From positions 64,121 to 128,120 of the forward strand of contig JBNLBF010000008.1 in NCBI GenBank assembly GCA_050302475.1: a DNA stretch of 64,000 bases. The letters are read 5' to 3'. Each line of letters opens with the position of its first letter. The stretch's first letter is position 1. This DNA comes from Paracoccaceae bacterium. Its GTDB lineage: Bacteria; Pseudomonadota; Alphaproteobacteria; Rhodobacterales; Rhodobacteraceae. The notes beneath the pieces were generated by a model. It saw only the letters and a program-made list of their open reading frames with translations. It made no database searches and was not told where the DNA came from. Both the position numbers and the translations under genes were made by a program. Positions 23,728 to 51,593 of this stretch are shown piece after piece.

Positions 23728-23783
23728 TGCCTCCATTCAGTGCGGATGTTGTCGATATATCCTTGCCCGGAATCATGGTGTCA

Positions 23784-23925
23784 GCCGCCGGGCGAACGCC
23801 AGCCCGTCACGGCGGGCCGGCGCTTCTCCAGCGGAGTGCCACGCGCAGCAGGAAGAAGTGATAGTCGAGCACAAAGTGCCCTGAATGGAGGTTATAGCGC
23901 CACCCCACGGGCAGGCGCTCGCCCC
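23784..23925. repeat. MITE-like repeat element, copy A (imperfect terminal inverted repeats)
   Basis: Shares 5' (GCCRCCGGGCGARCGCCWGCCCGTC) and 3' (GCGCCACCCCACGGGCAGGCGCTCGCCC) termini plus internal GGCGCTTCT and AAGTGCCCT blocks with copy B at 50590-50729. Sits between convergent genes. Confidence 0.6.
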
Positions 23926-44377: not shown

Positions 44378-44722
44378 ATGCGGTTCATTCGCTATAGCTT
44401 TTACGCCCTGCTGATGCTGGTGCTGGTTGTGTTGGCATTGGCCAACCGTCAGACGGTGACGCTGGGCCTTCTGCCGGAACAACTGGCCGATGTCTTCCCC
44501 GTGTCGATTGATCTGCCGCTATTTGTTGTCATCATGCTGGCAGCCCTTGCCGGGCTGGTGGTCGGTGAGGTTCTGGAGTTTTTCCGCGAGCATAAGGTTC
44601 GCAAAGAAGCCGCGGAAAAACGTCGTGAAGTTGCGCAGCTTAATCAGGAAGTTAAAGCGCTGAAAAAAGAAGCGGGGAGAGAGGATGACGACGTCCTCGC
44701 ACTGATCAATGACTCTCAGTAA
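44378..44722 (+). CDS. LapA-domain (DUF1049) inner-membrane protein
   Basis: 114 aa, two N-terminal TM helices then charged coiled region. Follows ihfB as lapA does. Confidence 0.65.
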
Positions 44723-45338
44723 AATTTGCGGGCTGACCCGGGCCGAAGATGTCGTTGCGGCGGTGGAGGCCGGGGCAAACTATATCGGGCTCAATTTTTT
44801 TCCACGTTCACCACGCTATGTCACGACGGAACAAGCGATTGCCCTGACCGAGGAAATCCCACCTGGTGTCTGCAAGGTTGGCTTGGTTGTCGATGCCGAT
44901 GACATTACCCTGACGGAGCTGATGCAGGTGCCGCTGGATATGCTGCAATTGCATGGATCCGAAACGCCTGAACGGGTGACTGAAATCAAGGAAAAATTTG
45001 GACTGCCGGTGATGAAGGTGGTGGGGATTGCGGATGCGGATGATGTGGCGAAGCTGGATCAGTATGGTGCGGTCGCCGATCAGCTGATGGTTGATGCCAA
45101 ACCACCCCGGACCGGCGGATTGCCGGGTGGCAATGGCCTGACTTTTGATTGGCGTTTGATCGCGAACCGCCGCTGGCCCGTGCCGTGGATGCTGGCAGGC
45201 GGCCTGACCCCGGACAATGTGGCCGAGGCGATTGCACTGACCGGTGTGAAGCAGGTCGATGTGGCATCGGGCGTCGAAAGTGCGCCGGGGGTAAAGGACC
45301 CCGATCTGGTTCGCGCTTTTATCGCAGCGGCACAATGA
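44709..45338 (+). CDS. trpF: phosphoribosylanthranilate isomerase
   Basis: 209 aa TIM barrel. KICGLT...[14 protein letters not shown]. Confidence 0.92.
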
Positions 45339-45787
45339 CCCTGACATTCCGATTTGCCGAGCCTGAGGATATCCCCGCAATCCTCGCGCTTCTTTCCGAT
45401 GACGATCTAGGTAGCGGGCGAGAGGTCGCGGATATGGCTGTCTATGCGCGCGCTTTCGACGAGATCAGGGCGCAGGACGGTAATGATCTGATCGTTGGCG
45501 TGGACGCTGAGGGCGCTGTGCAGGCGACCTATCAGCTGACCATCATGGCCGGGTTCTCGTTAGCCGGGGCACGACGGGCGCAGGTGGAAAATGTCCGTGT
45601 TGCCCGACAGCTGCGCGGCAAAGGCTATGGCCGATTGATGTTTCAGGACGCTGAAATCCGTGCCCGTGCTGCCGGGGCAGCGCTGATCCAGCTGGATATG
45701 AACAAAACCCGCACGGACAGCCACCGCTTTTATGAAGCCATCGGCTTTACGCCGTCGCACATTGGCTTTAAACGCTATCTGGATTGA
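45335..45787 (+). CDS. GNAT family N-acetyltransferase inserted between trpF and trpB
   Basis: 150 aa from ATG 45335 (ATGA overlap with trpF stop). [12 protein letters not shown] acetyl-CoA motif. Confidence 0.7.
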
Positions 45788-45798
45788 CGGAGGGCACC

Positions 45799-47019
45799 AT
45801 GGCCGAAGATTTCCTGAACAGCTTTATGACCGGACCGGATGAAAACGGACGTTTCGGCAATTACGGGGGCCGCTTTGTGGCGGAAACCCTGATGCCGCTG
45901 ATCCTCGATCTGGAAGCGGAATATGAAAAGGCGAAAACCGACCCGGACTTCTGGGCTGAGATGGATTTCCTCTGGAAGCATTATGTGGGTCGTCCCTCGC
46001 CGCTCTATTTCGCGGAACGCCTGACGGATCATTTCGGTGGGGCGAAAATTTACCTGAAACGCGACGAGCTGAACCACACCGGCGCGCACAAGATCAACAA
46101 TGTGCTGGGGCAGATCCTGCTGGCGCGGCGCATGGGTAAGACGCGGATCATCGCGGAAACCGGCGCGGGTCAGCATGGAGTTGCAACGGCGACCGTATGC
46201 GCGCGCTTTGGGTTGAAATGCGTGGTGTTCATGGGGGCAACCGATGTTGAACGTCAGGCTCCGAACGTGTTCCGCATGAAGCTGCTGGGCGCGGATATCG
46301 TGCCGGTGACAGCAGGTCGCGGCACGCTGAAAGACGCGATGAACGAAGCCCTGCGCGATTGGGTGACCAACGTTGACGAGACATTCTATTGCATCGGCAC
46401 AGTGGCCGGTCCGCACCCTTATCCCGCAATGGTTCGTGATTTCCAGTCGATCATCGGCAAGGAAACCAAAGAACAGATGATGGAACAAGAAGGGCGTTTG
46501 CCTGACTCATTGGTCGCCTGTATCGGCGGGGGATCAAACGCGATGGGTCTGTTCCATCCGTTCCTTGACGACAAGGACGTGCGCATCATCGGGGTCGAGG
46601 CTGGTGGCCATGGCGTTGACGAAAAGATGGAACATGCAGCAAGCCTGACAGGCGGTCGCCCCGGCGTGTTGCATGGCAACCGGACATATCTGTTGCAGGA
46701 CGAAGACGGGCAGATCCTCGAAGGGCATTCAATTTCGGCGGGTCTGGATTACCCCGGTATCGGGCCGGAACACGCATGGCTGAACGATATTGGCCGCGTG
46801 GAATACGTGTCGGTGACGGACAAAGAGGCGCTGACGGCGTTTCAACTGTCCTGCAGTACCGAAGGCATCATCCCGGCCCTAGAGCCCAGCCACGCGCTGG
46901 CACATGTGACCAAGATCGCGCCTGACCTGCCGAAGGATCATTTGCTGGTCATGAATATGTGTGGCCGCGGCGACAAGGATATCTTTACGGTTGCGGACGC
47001 GCTGGGCGTGAAGATGTAA
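45799..47019 (+). CDS. trpB: tryptophan synthase beta chain
   Basis: PLP enzyme ([17 protein letters not shown]). Start ATG 45799 after GGAGGG SD. ORF track extends to TTG 45784. Confidence 0.95.
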
Positions 47020-47218
47020 TCGCCTGTGGCGATATTGCCACAGTGCGTTGCGACATTGTAACGGTCACAATTTGCCCGGTTGATCGGAATCAGCCCTGCG
47101 GCTTATAGCCCGCCTCCCGTTCACAACGGACCGCATCTTAGCGGGTGGAGTTGCAACTCCTCCGGCGCAGGTGGCTTTGCCTCTCTGTGTGCCAAGAGCG
47201 TAAAGTTTGGATGGTTCT

Positions 47219-47290
47219 GGAGGTGTAGCTGACGGTGCGATCAGCGTGGCCATCACGCTGTTGCCGGTTCGAATCCGGTCATCTTCGCCA
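47219..47290 (+). other. 72-nt tRNA-like element ending in CCA (non-canonical fold, likely pseudo-tRNA)
   Basis: Canonical T-arm GCCGGTTCGAATCCGGT. 7-bp acceptor pairing GGAGGTG/CATCTTC with discriminator G and CCA. But no canonical D/anticodon arms can be drawn. Confidence 0.35.
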
Positions 47291-47360
47291 TGAGTAGCTC
47301 ATTAGGTAGAGCAACAGACTTCTAATCTGTGGGTAGCGGGTTCGACTCCCGCCTCAACTG
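47288..47360 (+). tRNA. tRNA-Arg(TCT)-like gene with defective 5' acceptor strand (possible truncated or pseudo-tRNA)
   Basis: Perfect D-arm GCTCATTAGGTAGAGC. Anticodon stem-loop ACAGA-CTTCTAA-TCTGT (anticodon TCT at 47321-47323). T-arm GCGGGTTCGACTCCCGC. Acceptor 3' strand CTCAACT. Nucleotides 1-3 (CCA) cannot pair with 70-72. Confidence 0.4.
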
Positions 47361-47376
47361 GTACGCGGTAACGCAC

Positions 47377-47401
47377 GCAGGTTCGACTCCTGCATAACGC
47401 C
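47377..47401 (+). other. third tandem tRNA 3'-fragment-like motif (T-arm plus 7-nt acceptor-like tail)
   Basis: GCAGGTTCGACTCCTGC-ATAACGC-C. No matching 5' half found. Confidence 0.3.
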
Positions 47402-47726
47402 GAAAGGCACCACGTTTAGGTCGTGTTAACGAACTAATCCAGGGGCGTCGGGGCTGGCCTGTGAGGTTGGTCCGCCGCCAGACCCCGCGAGGGGAAAGGC
47501 GAACGTCCGGCACCACCCTGGCCAAAGGCCGGTGGGTGATGATGATGGAGGCCCGCGCGGGCCGGGTGACGGGGGTTTCGATCCCCTGATCCCCACTCGC
47601 GCGGCCCAACATCCGCTCTCGCTCCCCCGTCTGCGGTCCGGTCAGCCGGTCCCGACATCCTTTCAACCGCCCCTCGGGGCACAACCAAGGAGAATGACGC
47701 AGATGCGTTAGGAAAAAGAAGAGGAA

Positions 47727-48869
47727 GTGACGATGATGAAAATGATTGAAAATATATTGGGATTCCACCGGATCACGGTCGAAGAAAACCAGCGAGCGAT
47801 TGTCCTGTACAAAGGGCGGTTCGCGGGTATCTTGGGACCGGGTGAGCACCGTCTGCGCACAAAAGACACGCGGACCGAGCTGCACGACCTGAACACACCG
47901 GAGATCGTCACACCCCTTCTGCAGGCCTTGTTCCGCGAACGCCCGGATATTGTTGCCGAGCATTTCGTCGAATTCGCGGCAGATACGGATCAGGTGCTGA
48001 TCGTTGCACGTGACGGGCGGCTGAACCGCGTTCTGCGCCCGGAAAACCGGGTTGTCGTCTGGCAGGCGGCGGGTCCGTGGACGGTCGAAACACTCGACCT
48101 GACCGAGGGGCTGGAGATCACGCCGCAACTGGCCGAACGGTTGGTTCGCGCAGGGATCACCACCAGCATGACCACGCTGGAGGTTCCGGATGCTCATGTC
48201 GGGCTGATGACGGTTGACGGTGCAATGGATCGGCAGCTGGCACCCGGGACGCACCGGTTCTGGAATGTCGGGCGCAAACTGGCGGTTCGGCTGATCGACA
48301 CGCGCTGGCGGACGCACGATGTTGTTGGGCAGGATATCCTGACCGCGGATCGTGTCACGCTGCGGGTCAATCTGGCGGCGGACTTTCGGGTCACCGATCC
48401 GGGTCAGGCGGCAGGTGCGGTGAAAGACTTCGAAGAAGCGCTTCACCGGGCCTTGCAGTTCGCGTTCCGTAAAACGCTGGGCGCGAAAACGCTGGACCAG
48501 TTGCTGGGTGAGAAAGTCACCGTCGACGCTGAGGTCGCGGATCAGGTCCGTACGGACATGGCCGCCATCGGGGTCGAGGTCGGGGCCATCGCGTTGAAAG
48601 ACGTGATCCTGCCGGGTGATATGCGAGAGATCCTGAACAGCGTCGTTCAGGCGGAGAAAGAGGCCGAAGCCAACGTCATCCGAAGACGCGAGGAAACGAA
48701 CGCCACCCGCAGCCTGCTCAACACCGCCAAAGTCATGGCCGAAAACCCGGTCATGCTGCGGCTGAAAGAGCTGGAGGCGCTGGAAGCCATCGCCGGGAAA
48801 GTCGAACGGCTGACGGTCCACAGCGGGACGGACGGATTGATGAACGATCTGGTCCGGCTTCGCGATTAA
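47727..48869 (+). CDS. SPFH/band-7 (slipin/stomatin-like) domain protein
   Basis: 380 aa. N-terminal band-7 start (AIVLYKGRF..GPGEHRL), C-terminal coiled region. Several alternative ATGs at 47727-47742. Confidence 0.75.
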   Translation: MTMMKMIENILGFHRITVEENQRAIVLYKGRFAGILGPGEHRLRTKDTRTELHDLNTPEIVTPLLQALFRERPDIVAEHFVEFAADTDQVLIVARDGRLNRVLRPENRVVVWQAAGPWTVETLDLTEGLEITPQLAERLVRAGITTSMTTLEVPDAHVGLMTVDGAMDRQLAPGTHRFWNVGRKLAVRLIDTRWRTHDVVGQDILTADRVTLRVNLAADFRVTDPGQAAGAVKDFEEALHRALQFAFRKTLGAKTLDQLLGEKVTVDAEVADQVRTDMAAIGVEVGAIALKDVILPGDMREILNSVVQAEKEAEANVIRRREETNATRSLLNTAKVMAENPVMLRLKELEALEAIAGKVERLTVHSGTDGLMNDLVRLRD

Positions 48870-48870
48870 G

Positions 48871-48908
48871 AAAGACCCGCGCGGGAAACTGCGCGGGTTA
48901 TTTTTTGG
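48871..48908 (+). terminator. intrinsic terminator with GNRA tetraloop, copy 1 of 3 identical
   Basis: aaagaCCCGCGCGG-GAAA-CTGCGCGGGTTATTTTTTGG. Confidence 0.8.
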
Positions 48909-49050
48909 ACATGTGTGCCTTCTCACGCACACGTCGCAAATTGCGTCTTTCATAGCACAAAAATAGCCAAATTTCTGGGATTTGCATTTGCAAGTTGAGC
49001 AATAAAGCAATTTTCGTTACCTTGCGTCATCTTTTGACTAGGAGGGGATC

Positions 49051-49677
49051 ATGTCACTAGCGAAGAAAATCGGGGCTGTTGCGGTCATCGCACTAGGTCT
49101 GGCAACAGCAACAACAGGTTCGGCGCAGACCAGCTACTATTTCGGTGGCGGTCTGGTTTACAGCATGGCGTCATCCACTTTCTCTGTAACCGCACCCAAC
49201 GAAGGTGATCTTTATGGCCTTGGTCTGACATATGGCATGAGGGTTGACTCCGGCAGCTACTTCTATGGCGGCGAAGTTGATGCGGATATTAATGTTGGCG
49301 GCGAACTGAGACTTCTTGGAACTGGACCGGCCTGCAGCGAAGGTTTTGCAAGCAACGCATATTATTGTTCGCAAACAGCGACCATGCGCTTGCGCGGGAT
49401 CTTTGGCACCAATATGGGTGGCTTTGACGTCTTTGGCAGTCTCGGCTACGGAATTATCTACGGTGAAGGTGCGATTGGTCCCTCTGGAGTCTCTGCGACT
49501 GCTGTTTCTGGAGGATTTACGTACGGCATTGGTGCCCAGATGCCGATGGCTGGCGGGACAATGCGTTTCGAGATCATTCAGGATGAGTTTACGCAGAGCA
49601 TCAGTCAGGCCTGCTGCGATAGTGCACCGGAATGGTCCGCGACATCGGCAAAAGTCAGTTATCTCTGGACCTTTTGA
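49051..49677 (+). CDS. small outer-membrane beta-barrel protein (OmpA-like/OMP_b-brl), paralog 1
   Basis: 208 aa. Signal peptide ...TGSAQTSYY, Gly/Tyr-rich amphipathic strands, C-terminal ...YLWTF. Confidence 0.75.
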   Translation: MSLAKKIGAVAVIALGLATATTGSAQTSYYFGGGLVYSMASSTFSVTAPNEGDLYGLGLTYGMRVDSGSYFYGGEVDADINVGGELRLLGTGPACSEGFASNAYYCSQTATMRLRGIFGTNMGGFDVFGSLGYGIIYGEGAIGPSGVSATAVSGGFTYGIGAQMPMAGGTMRFEIIQDEFTQSISQACCDSAPEWSATSAKVSYLWTF

Positions 49678-49698
49678 TCCTTGTAAATTGATGGAATG

Positions 49699-49730
49699 CC
49701 CGCGCGGGAAACTGCGCGGGTTATTTTTTG
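49699..49730 (+). terminator. intrinsic terminator, copy 2 of 3 identical
   Basis: CCCGCGCGG-GAAA-CTGCGCGGGTTATTTTTTG. Confidence 0.8.
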
Positions 49731-49858
49731 ACGAAAGTGAACCTTGCCACATACAAATGAAATATTGTGGCTTTTCTTCCACAAGGATGAAGCAAAATTT
49801 CCTAACCTATGGTTGCAGATTGAGTGGTTGCTGAATCTGGAGTAACCATACGTCATCT

Positions 49859-50500
49859 TTGGATACGGAGAGAGCAATGACTTTTTTACGAAAAATCGGC
49901 GCGGTTGCGGCCATTGCAATGGGTTTGACGACGGCTACCATAGCGTCGGCGCAGACCAGTTATTATGTCGGTGGTGGACTTGCCTATACAGATGCAGTGA
50001 CAACCAGTAATCTTAACCCAGCGTCAACGTCTTCAGGCGATCTTTTCGGCTTGGGCATCACTATCGGTTTGCGTAGCGATACAGGCAGCATGTTCTACGG
50101 CGCAGAAATTGATGGCGAGGTTTCCGTCTCCGGCGAAATTCGAAACGATTCCAGCACTAACACTTGCGCTGATGGAGCTGACTGGGCTCGGTATTGCGAT
50201 CAGACAGCGACGGTAAGACTCCGCGGTATTGTCGGAACCGATATCAGCGGTTACGAGGTCTTTGGGTCGTTGGGTTACGGACTTATGACTGGCGACGCTG
50301 CTGTTGACACATTTGCAACCGACACAGGTGTGTCCGGAGGGGTTACTTACGGTATCGGAATGCAAACCCAGTTTGGTTCGGGGTTGGTTCGTTTCGAGGT
50401 CATACGCGATGAGTTTACGACCACGATCGTCAGTCCCCAAGGCTACAACCCAACGTGGCAGGCGACGACGGTAAAGGCCTCTTATATCTATCAGTTCTGA
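49859..50500 (+). CDS. small outer-membrane beta-barrel protein, paralog 2
   Basis: 213 aa. Signal peptide and first ~35 aa nearly identical to paralog 1 (IGAVAAIAMGLTTATIASAQTSYYVGGGLAY). Ends ...YIYQF. Confidence 0.75.
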   Translation: MDTERAMTFLRKIGAVAAIAMGLTTATIASAQTSYYVGGGLAYTDAVTTSNLNPASTSSGDLFGLGITIGLRSDTGSMFYGAEIDGEVSVSGEIRNDSSTNTCADGADWARYCDQTATVRLRGIVGTDISGYEVFGSLGYGLMTGDAAVDTFATDTGVSGGVTYGIGMQTQFGSGLVRFEVIRDEFTTTIVSPQGYNPTWQATTVKASYIYQF

Positions 50501-50520
50501 AATCAAATTTGCTGATTGGG

Positions 50521-50559
50521 AAAGACCCGTGCGGGAAACTGCGCGGGTTATTTTTTTGG
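50521..50559 (+). terminator. intrinsic terminator, copy 3 of 3
   Basis: aaagaCCCGTGCGG-GAAA-CTGCGCGGGTTATTTTTTTGG (one G-U pair). Confidence 0.8.
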
Positions 50560-50589
50560 GCGTCTTCTTCAGCCCGGAATCAAGGCGAA

Positions 50590-50729
50590 GCCACCGGGCG
50601 AGCGCCTGCCCGTCCCGACGGATTGGCGCTTCTGTTAAGTCGCACAACGCTCATAGGTAAGAGTCAGTGGCCACTATAAAGTGCCCTACATTTACGTTGC
50701 GGCGCCACCCCACGGGCAGGCGCTCGCCC
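50590..50729. repeat. MITE-like repeat element, copy B (perfect 17-bp terminal inverted repeats)
   Basis: GGGCGAGCGCCTGCCCG at the 5' end and CGGGCAGGCGCTCGCCC at the 3' end. Between convergent OMP and pyrF genes. Confidence 0.6.
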
Positions 50730-50811
50730 TCATCAGGTCTAGGATTGGTGATCTTTTCCCTTAGTCACAGACGCTTTCGAATGGCGCGTTAAATCTCGCG
50801 GTCAAACAACC

Positions 50812-51522
50812 TCAAGAATTCCGTCCCATCGGCCCCCGCAACTCCGCCAATATCGCCTGCGCCGCACCGCGACGGTCTTTGGCGTCACGGATCGGGCGGC
50901 CGACGACGACATGGTCGGCGCCGTCCATAATCGAGGCGTAAGGCGTTGCGATACGTTTTTGGTCATTGTCCGCGGCACCAAGCGGGCGCACGCCGGGGGT
51001 GACGATCAGCTTGCCTTCCGCCTCGGGCAAGGCGCGGATGGCGGCGGCTTCGTGCGGGGAGGAGATCACGCCGTCAGCCCCAGCCAGAAAAGCTTGGCGC
51101 GCGCGTTCAACCGCGATCTCGGCCACGGTGCCCTCGCGATATTGCGCCATGTCCAGATCATCGCGCTCCAGCGAGGTCAGGATCGTGACGGCGAGGATCT
51201 TCAGCCCTTTGTCACCGCGCCCTTCGACAGCGGCTCGTACCACATACGGGTCGCCATGAACCGTCAGGAAATCCAGATCGAACTGCGCTAGGCCGCGCAC
51301 GGCATGTTCCACCGTTGCGCCAATATCGAACAGTTTCATGTCGAGGAAAACGCGCTTGCCCATCTCCTTCAGCTCGTTGGCAAGCGCCAGACCACCACCG
51401 GTCAGCATGCCAAGGCCGATCTTGTAGAAGGTCACCTGATCGCCCAGCTCTTCCACCATCGCGAGGCCAGCGAGCGCGTCCGGCACATCCAAAGCAACGA
51501 TCAAACGGTCGGAGTCTTTCAT
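50812..51522 (-). CDS. pyrF: orotidine 5'-phosphate decarboxylase
   Basis: LIVALD...KIGL..., DMKLFDIGATV motifs. Start ATG 51522 after AAGGAGGG SD. Confidence 0.92.
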   Translation of the reverse strand: MKDSDRLIVALDVPDALAGLAMVEELGDQVTFYKIGLGMLTGGGLALANELKEMGKRVFLDMKLFDIGATVEHAVRGLAQFDLDFLTVHGDPYVVRAAVEGRGDKGLKILAVTILTSLERDDLDMAQYREGTVAEIAVERARQAFLAGADGVISSPHEAAAIRALPEAEGKLIVTPGVRPLGAADNDQKRIATPYASIMDGADHVVVGRPIRDAKDRRGAAQAILAELRGPMGRNS

Positions 51523-51593
51523 GGGCAACCCTCCTTTTTGGCTACCCTTAGGGCAGGGTGAATGCTACGACAACCCCCAACGCAGGAGGGGTT

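Follow-up and report, generated by a model that had tools for sequence, protein, structure and literature searches.

A candidate RNA-protein module of Alphaproteobacteria: a tRNA-like leader RNA paired with a soluble SPFH/Band-7 protein

Results

We here describe a locus downstream of trpB in a Paracoccaceae bacterium (assembly GCA_050302475.1, contig JBNLBF010000008.1), contained in a 64-kb stretch of DNA that was analysed as a whole and is hereafter called the window. Between 47.05 and 48.91 kb of the window, a gene for a soluble SPFH/Band-7 protein (hereafter slipin) is preceded by a structured leader RNA of ~620 nt that includes two tRNA-like cloverleafs. This region probably constitutes a self-contained, vertically inherited module, in which the protein is encoded together with its cognate RNA. 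Since distant homologues of the slipin gene are found beside genes for RtcR and RlaP, we infer that the module represents the Band-7 + b7a-tRNA pair predicted by Burroughs and Aravind. Its features, in window coordinates, are as follows.

47080-47109 (plus strand): promoter-like site, TTGATC, 18-nt spacer, TATAGC (sequence reading)
47106-47223 (plus strand): 5' domain of the leader (covariance model R1 and RNAalifold)
47117-47121 / 47125-47129 (plus strand): hairpin H1 of the 5' domain
47144-47163 and about 47166-47190 (plus strand): junction hairpins H3 and H4 of the 5' domain
47219-47290 (plus strand): element A, ARAGORN 'tRNA-Trp(cca)', with a 7-bp acceptor stem, an encoded GCCA 3' end and an aberrant anticodon arm
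47291-47356 (plus strand): element B, Rfam tRNA at 55.3 bits (model positions 4-67), anticodon TCT
47377-47393 (plus strand): minihelix C, an extra T-arm-like hairpin, GCAGGTTCGACTCCTGC, a direct repeat of the T arm of element B
47447-47656 (plus strand): 3' domain, 210 nt, with a 12-bp long-range closing helix, 47447-47458 / 47645-47656
47537-47548 (plus strand): UGAUGAUGAUGG, inside the 3' domain, conserved as GAUGAYGG
47571-47587 (plus strand): T-arm-like hairpin inside the 3' domain
47687-47692 (plus strand): Shine-Dalgarno-like AAGGAG, preceding the mini-upstream open reading frame
47694-47711 (plus strand): mini-upstream open reading frame (mini-uORF) ATGACGCAGATGCGTTAG, behind AAGGAG
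47733-48869 (plus strand): slipin/Band-7 (SPFH) gene, 378 aa, Pfam Band_7 at 2.3e-27 (residues 152-323)
48874-48906 (plus strand): intrinsic terminator of the slipin gene, ancestral copy (terminator scan), with the same sequence after slipin in the related locus L001

The RNA and the slipin gene stay together across two orders

How widely is this arrangement kept? Our comparison covered 80 genomic loci with SPFH homologues at 57-72% identity, drawn from more than 573 genome hits (related loci are labelled L001-L091 where they need to be told apart). With the window proteins as tblastn queries, the order rpsA-ihfB-lapA-trpF-trpB-(tRNA-like RNA)-slipin was recovered in 24 loci, and the trpB-linked module occurs in Ruegeria, Litoreibacter, Roseovarius, Actibacterium, Tateyamaria, Thalassobius, Pseudophaeobacter and Marinosulfonomonas. 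ARAGORN calls tRNA-like elements, single or two in tandem, on the same strand as slipin and ~330-650 nt upstream of its start, in 76/80 loci. The same pairing is seen without a nearby trpB in Mesorhizobium, Devosia, Shinella, Nitratireductor and Breoghania. In Rhodobacterales, trpB is the gene ahead of the module; the Rhizobiales copies sit among unrelated neighbours. When neighbouring open reading frames (ORFs) were clustered, no protein-coding neighbour was common to the Rhodobacterales and Rhizobiales loci. Only the RNA and the slipin protein remain linked to each other in both orders.

The closest relative, L001, whose TrpB is 97% identical, helps to delimit the unit. There, the end of pyrF comes immediately after the slipin terminator, and the DNA between trpB and the module promoter (L001:5045-7330) holds ORFs for about three unrelated genes, so the trpB-side junction is also permissive to insertion. 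The conserved block from about 47049 onward is kept in L001 despite the different preceding gene. Because the order is shared by 24 loci and because of this comparison with L001, we conclude that the RNA + slipin unit is the core and that its two junctions collect lineage-specific DNA. By reading, the products of the extra L001 ORFs include a small protein resembling a regulator and a secreted one with an acidic repeat of Gly, Glu and Asp.

Promoter-like site and 5' domain of the leader

The promoter-like site at 47080-47109 conforms to a TTG-N(16-19)-(C)TAT-type pattern that is present at the same place in 61/74 homologous loci. A strict sigma-70 scan did not pick the site up. Directly after the -35 TTG, the window (47086-47092) and Rhodobacterales loci (e.g. 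TTGAGCGAATCC) share a conserved CGAATC-like motif, which may be a regulator site. The -10 of the module is of the CCTAT type, which is found in both sigma-70 and RpoH promoters of alphaproteobacteria. A terminator scan returned no terminator-like site between 47020 and 47733, and since none separates the promoter-like site from the ORF, a single predicted transcript carrying leader and slipin would be the simplest reading.

The 5' domain carries the conserved motifs UAGCGG, CCGGYGC and GURUGCC, and RNAalifold registers compensatory changes in 12/17 of its pairs. R1, the covariance model built on this domain, reaches 91.7 bits (E 1e-17) in the window and finds exactly one match per locus, upstream of slipin, in 77 alphaproteobacterial loci. 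It also matches the RtcB-linked loci L090 and L091 discussed below, and nothing else reached significance in the 1.4 Mb searched.

Two covarying cloverleafs that are not ordinary tRNAs

Of the two tRNA-like elements, B is the universal one. It has D, anticodon and T arms, and its acceptor stem amounts to just 4 bp in the window. Over 56 distinct sequences, 97.8% of the cells of the cloverleaf are paired, with compensatory changes in 12/18 pairs, including all four pairs of the short acceptor stem; none of 500 shuffles paired as highly, and slid registers were 39-49% paired. The anticodon, however constant the fold around it, takes 18 different triplets among orthologous copies. Copies with a 7-nt loop (n=71) mostly retain U33, U36, A37 and A38, and among the 30 copies from Mesorhizobium no part of the element varies more than positions 34-35. 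This pattern of substitution fits a relaxed constraint on decoding; it is not proof of positive selection, because the T-loop position N59 comes close to the same variability.

Element A is closer to the margin of detection, with an Rfam tRNA score of 27.9 bits at 47219-47287, under the gathering score of 29. Its copies (n=57) have a tRNA-Ala-like body and often a 6-nt anticodon loop, with G3:U70 in 26 and an encoded CCA in 31. In Mesorhizobium (e.g. L051:7494-7567), the element has the look of tRNA-Ala (G3:U70, A73, encoded CCA), again with a 6-nt anticodon loop, and by analogy with the tRNA-like domain of transfer-messenger RNA (tmRNA) might be chargeable by alanyl-tRNA synthetase and yet non-decoding. 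A two-piece tmRNA, considered as an identity for this Ala-like, CCA-ending element, was set aside: neither ARAGORN nor Rfam reported a tmRNA, and many loci do without the element. Minihelix C is present in a subset of loci, notably those without element A.

Might A and B simply be ordinary tRNA genes, or recent pseudogenes of tRNAs, whose position between trpB and slipin is accidental? ARAGORN does call tRNAs at this place in the majority of loci, with Rfam tRNA scores of up to 55-60 bits. We nevertheless reject genuine tRNA genes and regard the idea as a whole as scarcely credible, given that the orthologues of B differ in 18 anticodon triplets and have an acceptor stem of 3-4 bp, that the anticodon loop of A is often one of 6 nt and the element is reported as 'tRNA-???', and that 97.8% base pairing with compensatory change is not expected of pseudogenes. 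An earlier note on the window, made from its sequence alone, had spoken of 'tRNA-like debris'; what we find instead are intact, covarying cloverleafs within a conserved ~620-nt leader.

A closed 3' domain and a mini-uORF precede the slipin start

Downstream of the cloverleafs, the long-range helix that closes the 3' domain was documented by direct search with a shuffle control. A homologous helix of 13-19 bp exists in 68/77 loci, with many compensatory differences, versus mostly 9-11 bp in shuffles, and the helix of the window also appears in a single-sequence fold prediction. The enclosed domain measures 196-242 nt in 66 of the 68 loci passing the helix filter, in both orders, the remaining two being aberrant calls (102 and 155 nt). 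Within it, UGAUGAUGAUGG gives weak archaeal C/D-box matches in Rfam and could be a kink-turn-like protein-binding motif. A small ORF at 47532-47711 in the leader was judged spurious, the conservation pattern of the region being RNA-like.

Between the 3' domain and slipin, 56/77 loci, compared to 3.7% of shuffles, have a Shine-Dalgarno-like site and behind it an ORF that is no longer than 8 codons and stops 18-43 nt ahead of the slipin start. The mini-ORFs concerned comprise 1-7 codons, and the Shine-Dalgarno-like site is a strong one. The mini-uORF typically reads TTG CGA CGA CGA TAG in Rhodobacterales and ATG ACG TGA in Mesorhizobium, and in three loci it is reduced to a start-stop, GTG TAG. 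In many loci, its start codon lies within a short hairpin (UCGCA-N-UGCGA).

These features lend themselves to the main rival explanation, according to which the ~620-nt region is purely a cis-regulatory leader, that is, a tRNA-mimicking sensor and translational switch for slipin. A tRNA-binding factor or nuclease acting on the cloverleafs, be it RNase P, an anticodon nuclease or a modification enzyme, would then alter the accessibility of the mini-uORF and the ribosome-binding site. Consistent with this, a single promoter-like site serves RNA and ORF, which no terminator-like site separates; the RNA invariably comes just before the ORF, in the same orientation; and a Shine-Dalgarno-like site plus mini-uORF is conserved shortly ahead of the start codon. 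Yet much of the ~620 nt is structurally conserved and made of several autonomous folding units, beyond the needs of known leaders, and according to a 2018 preprint (bioRxiv 10.1101/312249), the tRNA-like YrlA paired with Ro60 acts in trans elsewhere. We consider an exclusive cis role improbable, albeit to be taken seriously; cis and trans roles are not mutually exclusive.

The slipin protein is predicted to be soluble

The slipin start is ATG 47733 in the database entry, and a version starting from GTG (47727) has no exact protein match. In an AlphaFold2 model (mean pLDDT, the predicted local distance difference test, 82.9), beta-strand repeats at the N-terminus lead into an SPFH domain, which is followed by long helices at the C-terminus; the repeats occupy about 150-185 residues, ahead of the SPFH domain or overlapping its beginning. 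The modelled fold is stomatin/HflK-like. Neither sequence reading nor the AlphaFold2 secondary structure gives a membrane segment, and the N-terminus is without a hydrophobic stretch. A membrane stomatin/slipin acting with an NfeD partner was hence rejected for want of an anchor, and the neighbouring ORFs that were scanned gave no NfeD match, albeit without a search dedicated to it. PADLOC gave no match, and NCBIfam returned sub-threshold HflK/HflC matches only.

A search with the N-terminal region defined a family of 470 cluster representatives at E up to 0.001. Relatives P0180 (894 aa), P0194 (672 aa) and P0221 (702 aa) (loci L085, L088) have 4 to ~8 N-terminal beta repeats ahead of the SPFH domain and helix (up to ~8 in P0180), in parallel to the architecture of eukaryotic major vault protein, and in L088 two tRNA-like elements lie upstream of the slipin relative. 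Pfam Vault and MVP_shoulder gave no match at E up to 1, the 894-aa P0180 included, so that the resemblance is a structural one.

Distant homologues lie beside RNA-repair genes

Full-length blastp placed slipin at 36-37% identity to P0241 and P0215, P0241 being the 90%-identity cluster representative of P0277, a protein encoded in L090. The gene order of L090 is RtcR, RtcB, a 329-nt RNA and Band-7. This RNA has a YrlA-like match at 46.8 bits and an R1 match at 32.3 bits (E 3e-4; R1 also matches in L091), a weak link at the level of the RNA, and the core of its 5' domain reads UAGCGG-GUGCG-hairpin-CGUAUGCC. In L081 (Oceanospirillum sediminis), the order is RtcR, a sigma-54-type promoter, an RNA with two T-arms, Band-7 and RlaP. 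Further tRNA-like matches upstream of standalone Band-7 relatives occur in L082, L084, L087 and L088. In L090, a gene for a 213-aa outer membrane protein (OMP) of the beta-barrel type (L090:6536-7177) follows right after the Band-7 gene on the opposite strand; this adjacency is probably a coincidence, because the two OMPs of the window had no tblastn match with it at E up to 0.01.

Burroughs and Aravind (2016) reportedly proposed SPFH/Band-7 scaffolds together with 'a novel tRNA-like molecule' in RNA-repair systems, the pair serving as their scaffold or cofactor. The preprint cited above (bioRxiv 10.1101/312249) mentions a Band-7 protein encoded directly downstream of a predicted non-coding RNA that strongly resembles tRNA (b7a-tRNA), gives the pair as lacking experimental validation as of 2018 and, reporting on Burroughs and Aravind, states that b7a-tRNA and YrlA are predicted to exchange partners occasionally. 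YrlA itself has been proposed as a decoy against anticodon nuclease (PMC7790460). The searchable literature contained no experimental test of the Band-7/b7a-tRNA pair and no further paper mentioning it, and a word search for tRNA-like RNA in connection with slipin, SPFH, stomatin or HflK retrieved nothing relevant.

Neighbouring genes and a lineage-specific insertion at the 3' junction

The DNA on either side of the module contains the following features.

44709-45338: trpF, upstream of trpB
45338-45787: GNAT gene, between trpF and trpB
stop at 47019: trpB, followed by a 713-nt gap and then the slipin gene
48907-50805 (plus strand): lineage-specific insertion, ~1.9 kb, absent from L001 and outside the module
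49051-49677 (plus strand): OMP1 (Pfam scan)
49859-50500 (plus strand): OMP2 (Pfam scan)
about 50572-50729: repeat element, 160-170 bp, with an 18-nt perfect inverted repeat, 50596-50613 / 50712-50729
50812-51528 (minus strand): pyrF (Pfam scan)

The succession listed in the earlier note, from trpF-(GNAT)-trpB through tRNA-like sequence, an SPFH gene and two OMP paralogues to pyrF, is borne out by ARAGORN, Rfam and Pfam. The GNAT acetyltransferase gene (45338-45787) is a variable insert in the trpF-trpB pair, which only some relatives share (L001, L011, L020). The note had also taken the whole ~3.8-kb segment between trpB and pyrF for non-core DNA. This is correct for the OMP/repeat half of ~1.9 kb (~48.9-50.8 kb) and incorrect for the RNA/slipin half. 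Likewise, the G+C comparison that it proposed separates the two parts, with lower values over the OMP insertion (0.49-0.53 vs 0.58-0.64) and values equal to the flanks over RNA and slipin.

OMP1 and OMP2 are 50% identical to one another, and no homologue of either was found in the other loci searched. They form two tandem units of ~825 bp, each ending in a terminator copy, with direct repeats 823-827 bp apart. As the note had it, both OMP genes carry the same terminator, but the sequence CCCGCGCGGGAAACTGCGCGGGTTATTTTTT is present three times in total (48876-48906, 49699-49729 and 50526-50556; 0 expected by chance), and the first copy is the slipin gene's own. The insertion with its OMP genes and repeat is also present in a near-identical metagenome-assembled genome, GCA_050299735.1. 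As to the repeat, described as a 'MITE-like element' (miniature inverted-repeat transposable element), the perfect 18-nt inverted repeat is there, but the element is of low copy number: a second window copy at 23765-23924 (72.5% identity over 160 nt, same orientation, intergenic) and no copy among the 91 related loci. A small RNA family is one possible identity, a low-copy repeat similar to MITE or REP (repetitive extragenic palindromic) sequences another. Judging from these comparisons, the OMP pair and the small repeat appear to be a separate, recent insertion at the 3' junction of the module.

A mobile origin does not account for the RNA and slipin

The earlier note went further and read the segment as a degenerate mobile element, an integration or rearrangement hotspot with tRNA-like scars, whose arrival had displaced trpA. 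What would favour such a remnant of a mobile element or genomic island beside trpB, with scars of tRNA attachment sites? Lineage-specific DNA has indeed gathered at both junctions of the module (OMP genes and repeat here, ORFs for about three genes in L001), the OMP part is lower in G+C, and trpA does not adjoin trpB. To this extent the hotspot stands, except that the tRNA-like elements are not marks of integration. For the RNA + slipin half, the mobile-element explanation is refuted by the recurrence of the gene order in 24 loci from many genera, by tRNA-like elements that are complete, covarying and at a fixed distance from slipin even in Rhizobiales, and by a G+C content that matches the flanks. 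The note itself had named a gene order conserved across the family, with trpA always unlinked, as the finding that would speak against its view, and a conserved trpB-RNA-slipin order is what the Rhodobacterales loci compared display.

The note's statement that the segment contains no integrase or transposase gene agrees with our data, as far as no ORF of that kind is conspicuous in the segment's ORF list and the Pfam scan covered nine ORFs only. In a repeat search of the window, no directly repeated tRNA 3' end turned up on the two sides of the segment. We therefore discarded a tRNA-targeted island or MITE insertion as the source of the segment: no integrase-like ORF is conspicuous (nine ORFs Pfam-scanned), the repeat search gave no bracketing repeats, and RNA and slipin exist in all relatives, with only the OMP/repeat part absent from L001. 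Taken as a whole, the mobile-remnant explanation strikes us as very unlikely.

Where, then, is trpA? No match was obtained anywhere in the 64-kb window by tblastn with E. coli TrpA, a query that does find trpA in seven related loci. In these seven (L009, L010, L011, L014 and L016-L018, from Ruegeria, Litoreibacter and a Roseovarius), trpA is on the strand opposite to slipin and 5-9 kb further downstream, at about 13.8-14.6 kb in L009, L016, L017 and L018 and at the locus ends in L010, L011 and L014. In none of the 24 loci in which trpB precedes the module does trpA follow trpB, contrary to a displacement by the insertion event. Other alphaproteobacteria have trpFBA. Together with the position of trpA in the seven loci, this leaves room for an ancient event at the base of the Rhodobacterales, and the trpA location is compatible with an old rearrangement, basal to the group, by which trpA and trpFB were parted.

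Discussion

What might the physiological role of this module be? On our preferred reading, transcription would start at the conserved promoter-like site and run through the ~620-nt leader, the slipin gene and the terminator. The leader is made up, in this order, of a 5' multi-helix domain, cloverleaf A, cloverleaf B, a spare T-arm and a closed domain of ~210 nt, ending with the mini-uORF, which probably tunes slipin translation. The tRNA-like units are plausible sites for processing by RNase P. Like other SPFH proteins, slipin probably forms a ring or cage, and the tRNA-shaped RNA is probably its ligand. On the model of Ro60 and Y RNA, the resulting particle may act in a response to tRNA or RNA damage, be it by presenting or sequestering broken tRNAs or by decoying anticodon nucleases, and the alphaproteobacterial version would do so without an adjacent ligase. 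A role as an RNA-damage ribonucleoprotein thus remains an interpretation by analogy.

A bolder version of this proposal can be formulated, in which the partner would be a multi-domain RNA of ~600 nt, comparable in size to other large bacterial non-coding RNAs, that assembles with a soluble cage of SPFH proteins resembling major vault protein (MVP), yielding a vault- or Ro-like particle that decoys or senses anticodon nucleases. Its parts would be a 5' junction domain, a CCA-ending cloverleaf of alanine identity, a truncated cloverleaf with a freely varying anticodon but retained U33, U36, A37 and A38, T-loop modules and a closed domain of 200 nt. Once cleaved or processed, the cloverleafs would simultaneously switch on translation of the cage protein via the mini-uORF. 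We offer this scenario as speculation, and it is more likely wrong than right by a wide measure.

Several observations weigh against the module as we interpret it. RtcB, RtcR and RlaP, searched by tblastn with the L090 and L081 proteins, were found neither in the window nor within 8 kb in the 80 alphaproteobacterial loci, and the repair link therefore rests on the distant homologues at 36-37% identity. Among these more distant loci, neither ARAGORN nor Rfam detects a tRNA-like element in L081 and L085, and the two T-arms of L081 were recognised by eye only. Element A is replaced by a plain hairpin, and so is dispensable, in about 20 Rhodobacterales loci, and the copy of the window has G2:U71 and A3:U70 and lacks G3:U70. 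The RNAalifold consensus of the whole 3' domain reaches just -1.1 kcal/mol, with MAFFT misregistering the clades, and its internal helices find no consensus. Finally, the leader RNA could be acting in cis only.

Assuming that our reading holds, odd tRNA calls such as the 'tRNA-Trp' reported here mark a conserved RNA-protein module, and spurious calls of this type at the module locus could mislead the prediction of genomic islands. The alphaproteobacterial version is widespread, occurs in Ruegeria and Mesorhizobium among others and has its own predicted promoter, and so provides a testable case. Understanding it would bear on the function of soluble SPFH cages, on the part played by tRNA-shaped RNAs in RNA repair, and on the existence of bacterial vault-like ribonucleoproteins.

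How does the module compare with known systems? The membrane cages built by stomatin, QmcA or HflK/C differ from it in that the slipin of the window has no membrane hairpin or transmembrane segment and instead possesses N-terminal beta repeats; in addition, the neighbouring ORFs scanned gave no match to NfeD or FtsH, in a scan that was not a dedicated search. Major vault protein shares with the slipin model the N-terminal beta repeats, an SPFH-like shoulder and a long cap helix, and vault RNA is likewise a small structured RNA associated with a protein. In contrast, slipin gives no Pfam Vault or MVP_shoulder match, has far fewer repeats and is closer in fold to stomatin; homology to MVP is evidenced only at the SPFH core, and slipin is known here from a monomer model. 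A preprint on bacterial MVP (10.1101/872010) was examined as well and concerns unrelated, full-length MVP homologues.

A nearer parallel is the Ro60 (Rsr)/YrlA system (RF02553) of rsr-yrlBA-rtcBA operons. Here, too, a scaffold protein is combined with an RNA that has a tRNA-like domain, and there is a connection to RtcB and RtcR, which in our case runs via distant family members. Partial YrlA-like matches in the RNAs of this family score 24.9 bits for the window, 41.6 bits for L084 and 46.8 bits for L090, all below the gathering score of 69. The two systems differ in their protein, SPFH in the window as opposed to TROVE in Ro60, and in their RNA: in YrlA a Ro-binding stem replaces the anticodon arm, whereas the cloverleafs of the window keep a complete one.

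The closest likeness is with the Band-7 + b7a-tRNA pair, in which a Band-7 gene is likewise situated directly downstream of a tRNA-like non-coding RNA, and distant homologues of the window's slipin are encoded beside RtcR/RtcB and RtcR/RlaP. Unlike in those repair-linked loci, no ligase, RtcR or RlaP gene lies within 8 kb here or in the 80 alphaproteobacterial loci. Compared by description, b7a-tRNA is a single tRNA-like unit, while the leader described here extends over ~620 nt and combines two cloverleafs with 5' and 3' domains and a mini-uORF. The module thus appears to belong to a predicted and apparently untested kind, whose RNA, as far as its sequence tells, has a richer architecture than the term 'tRNA-like molecule' would suggest.

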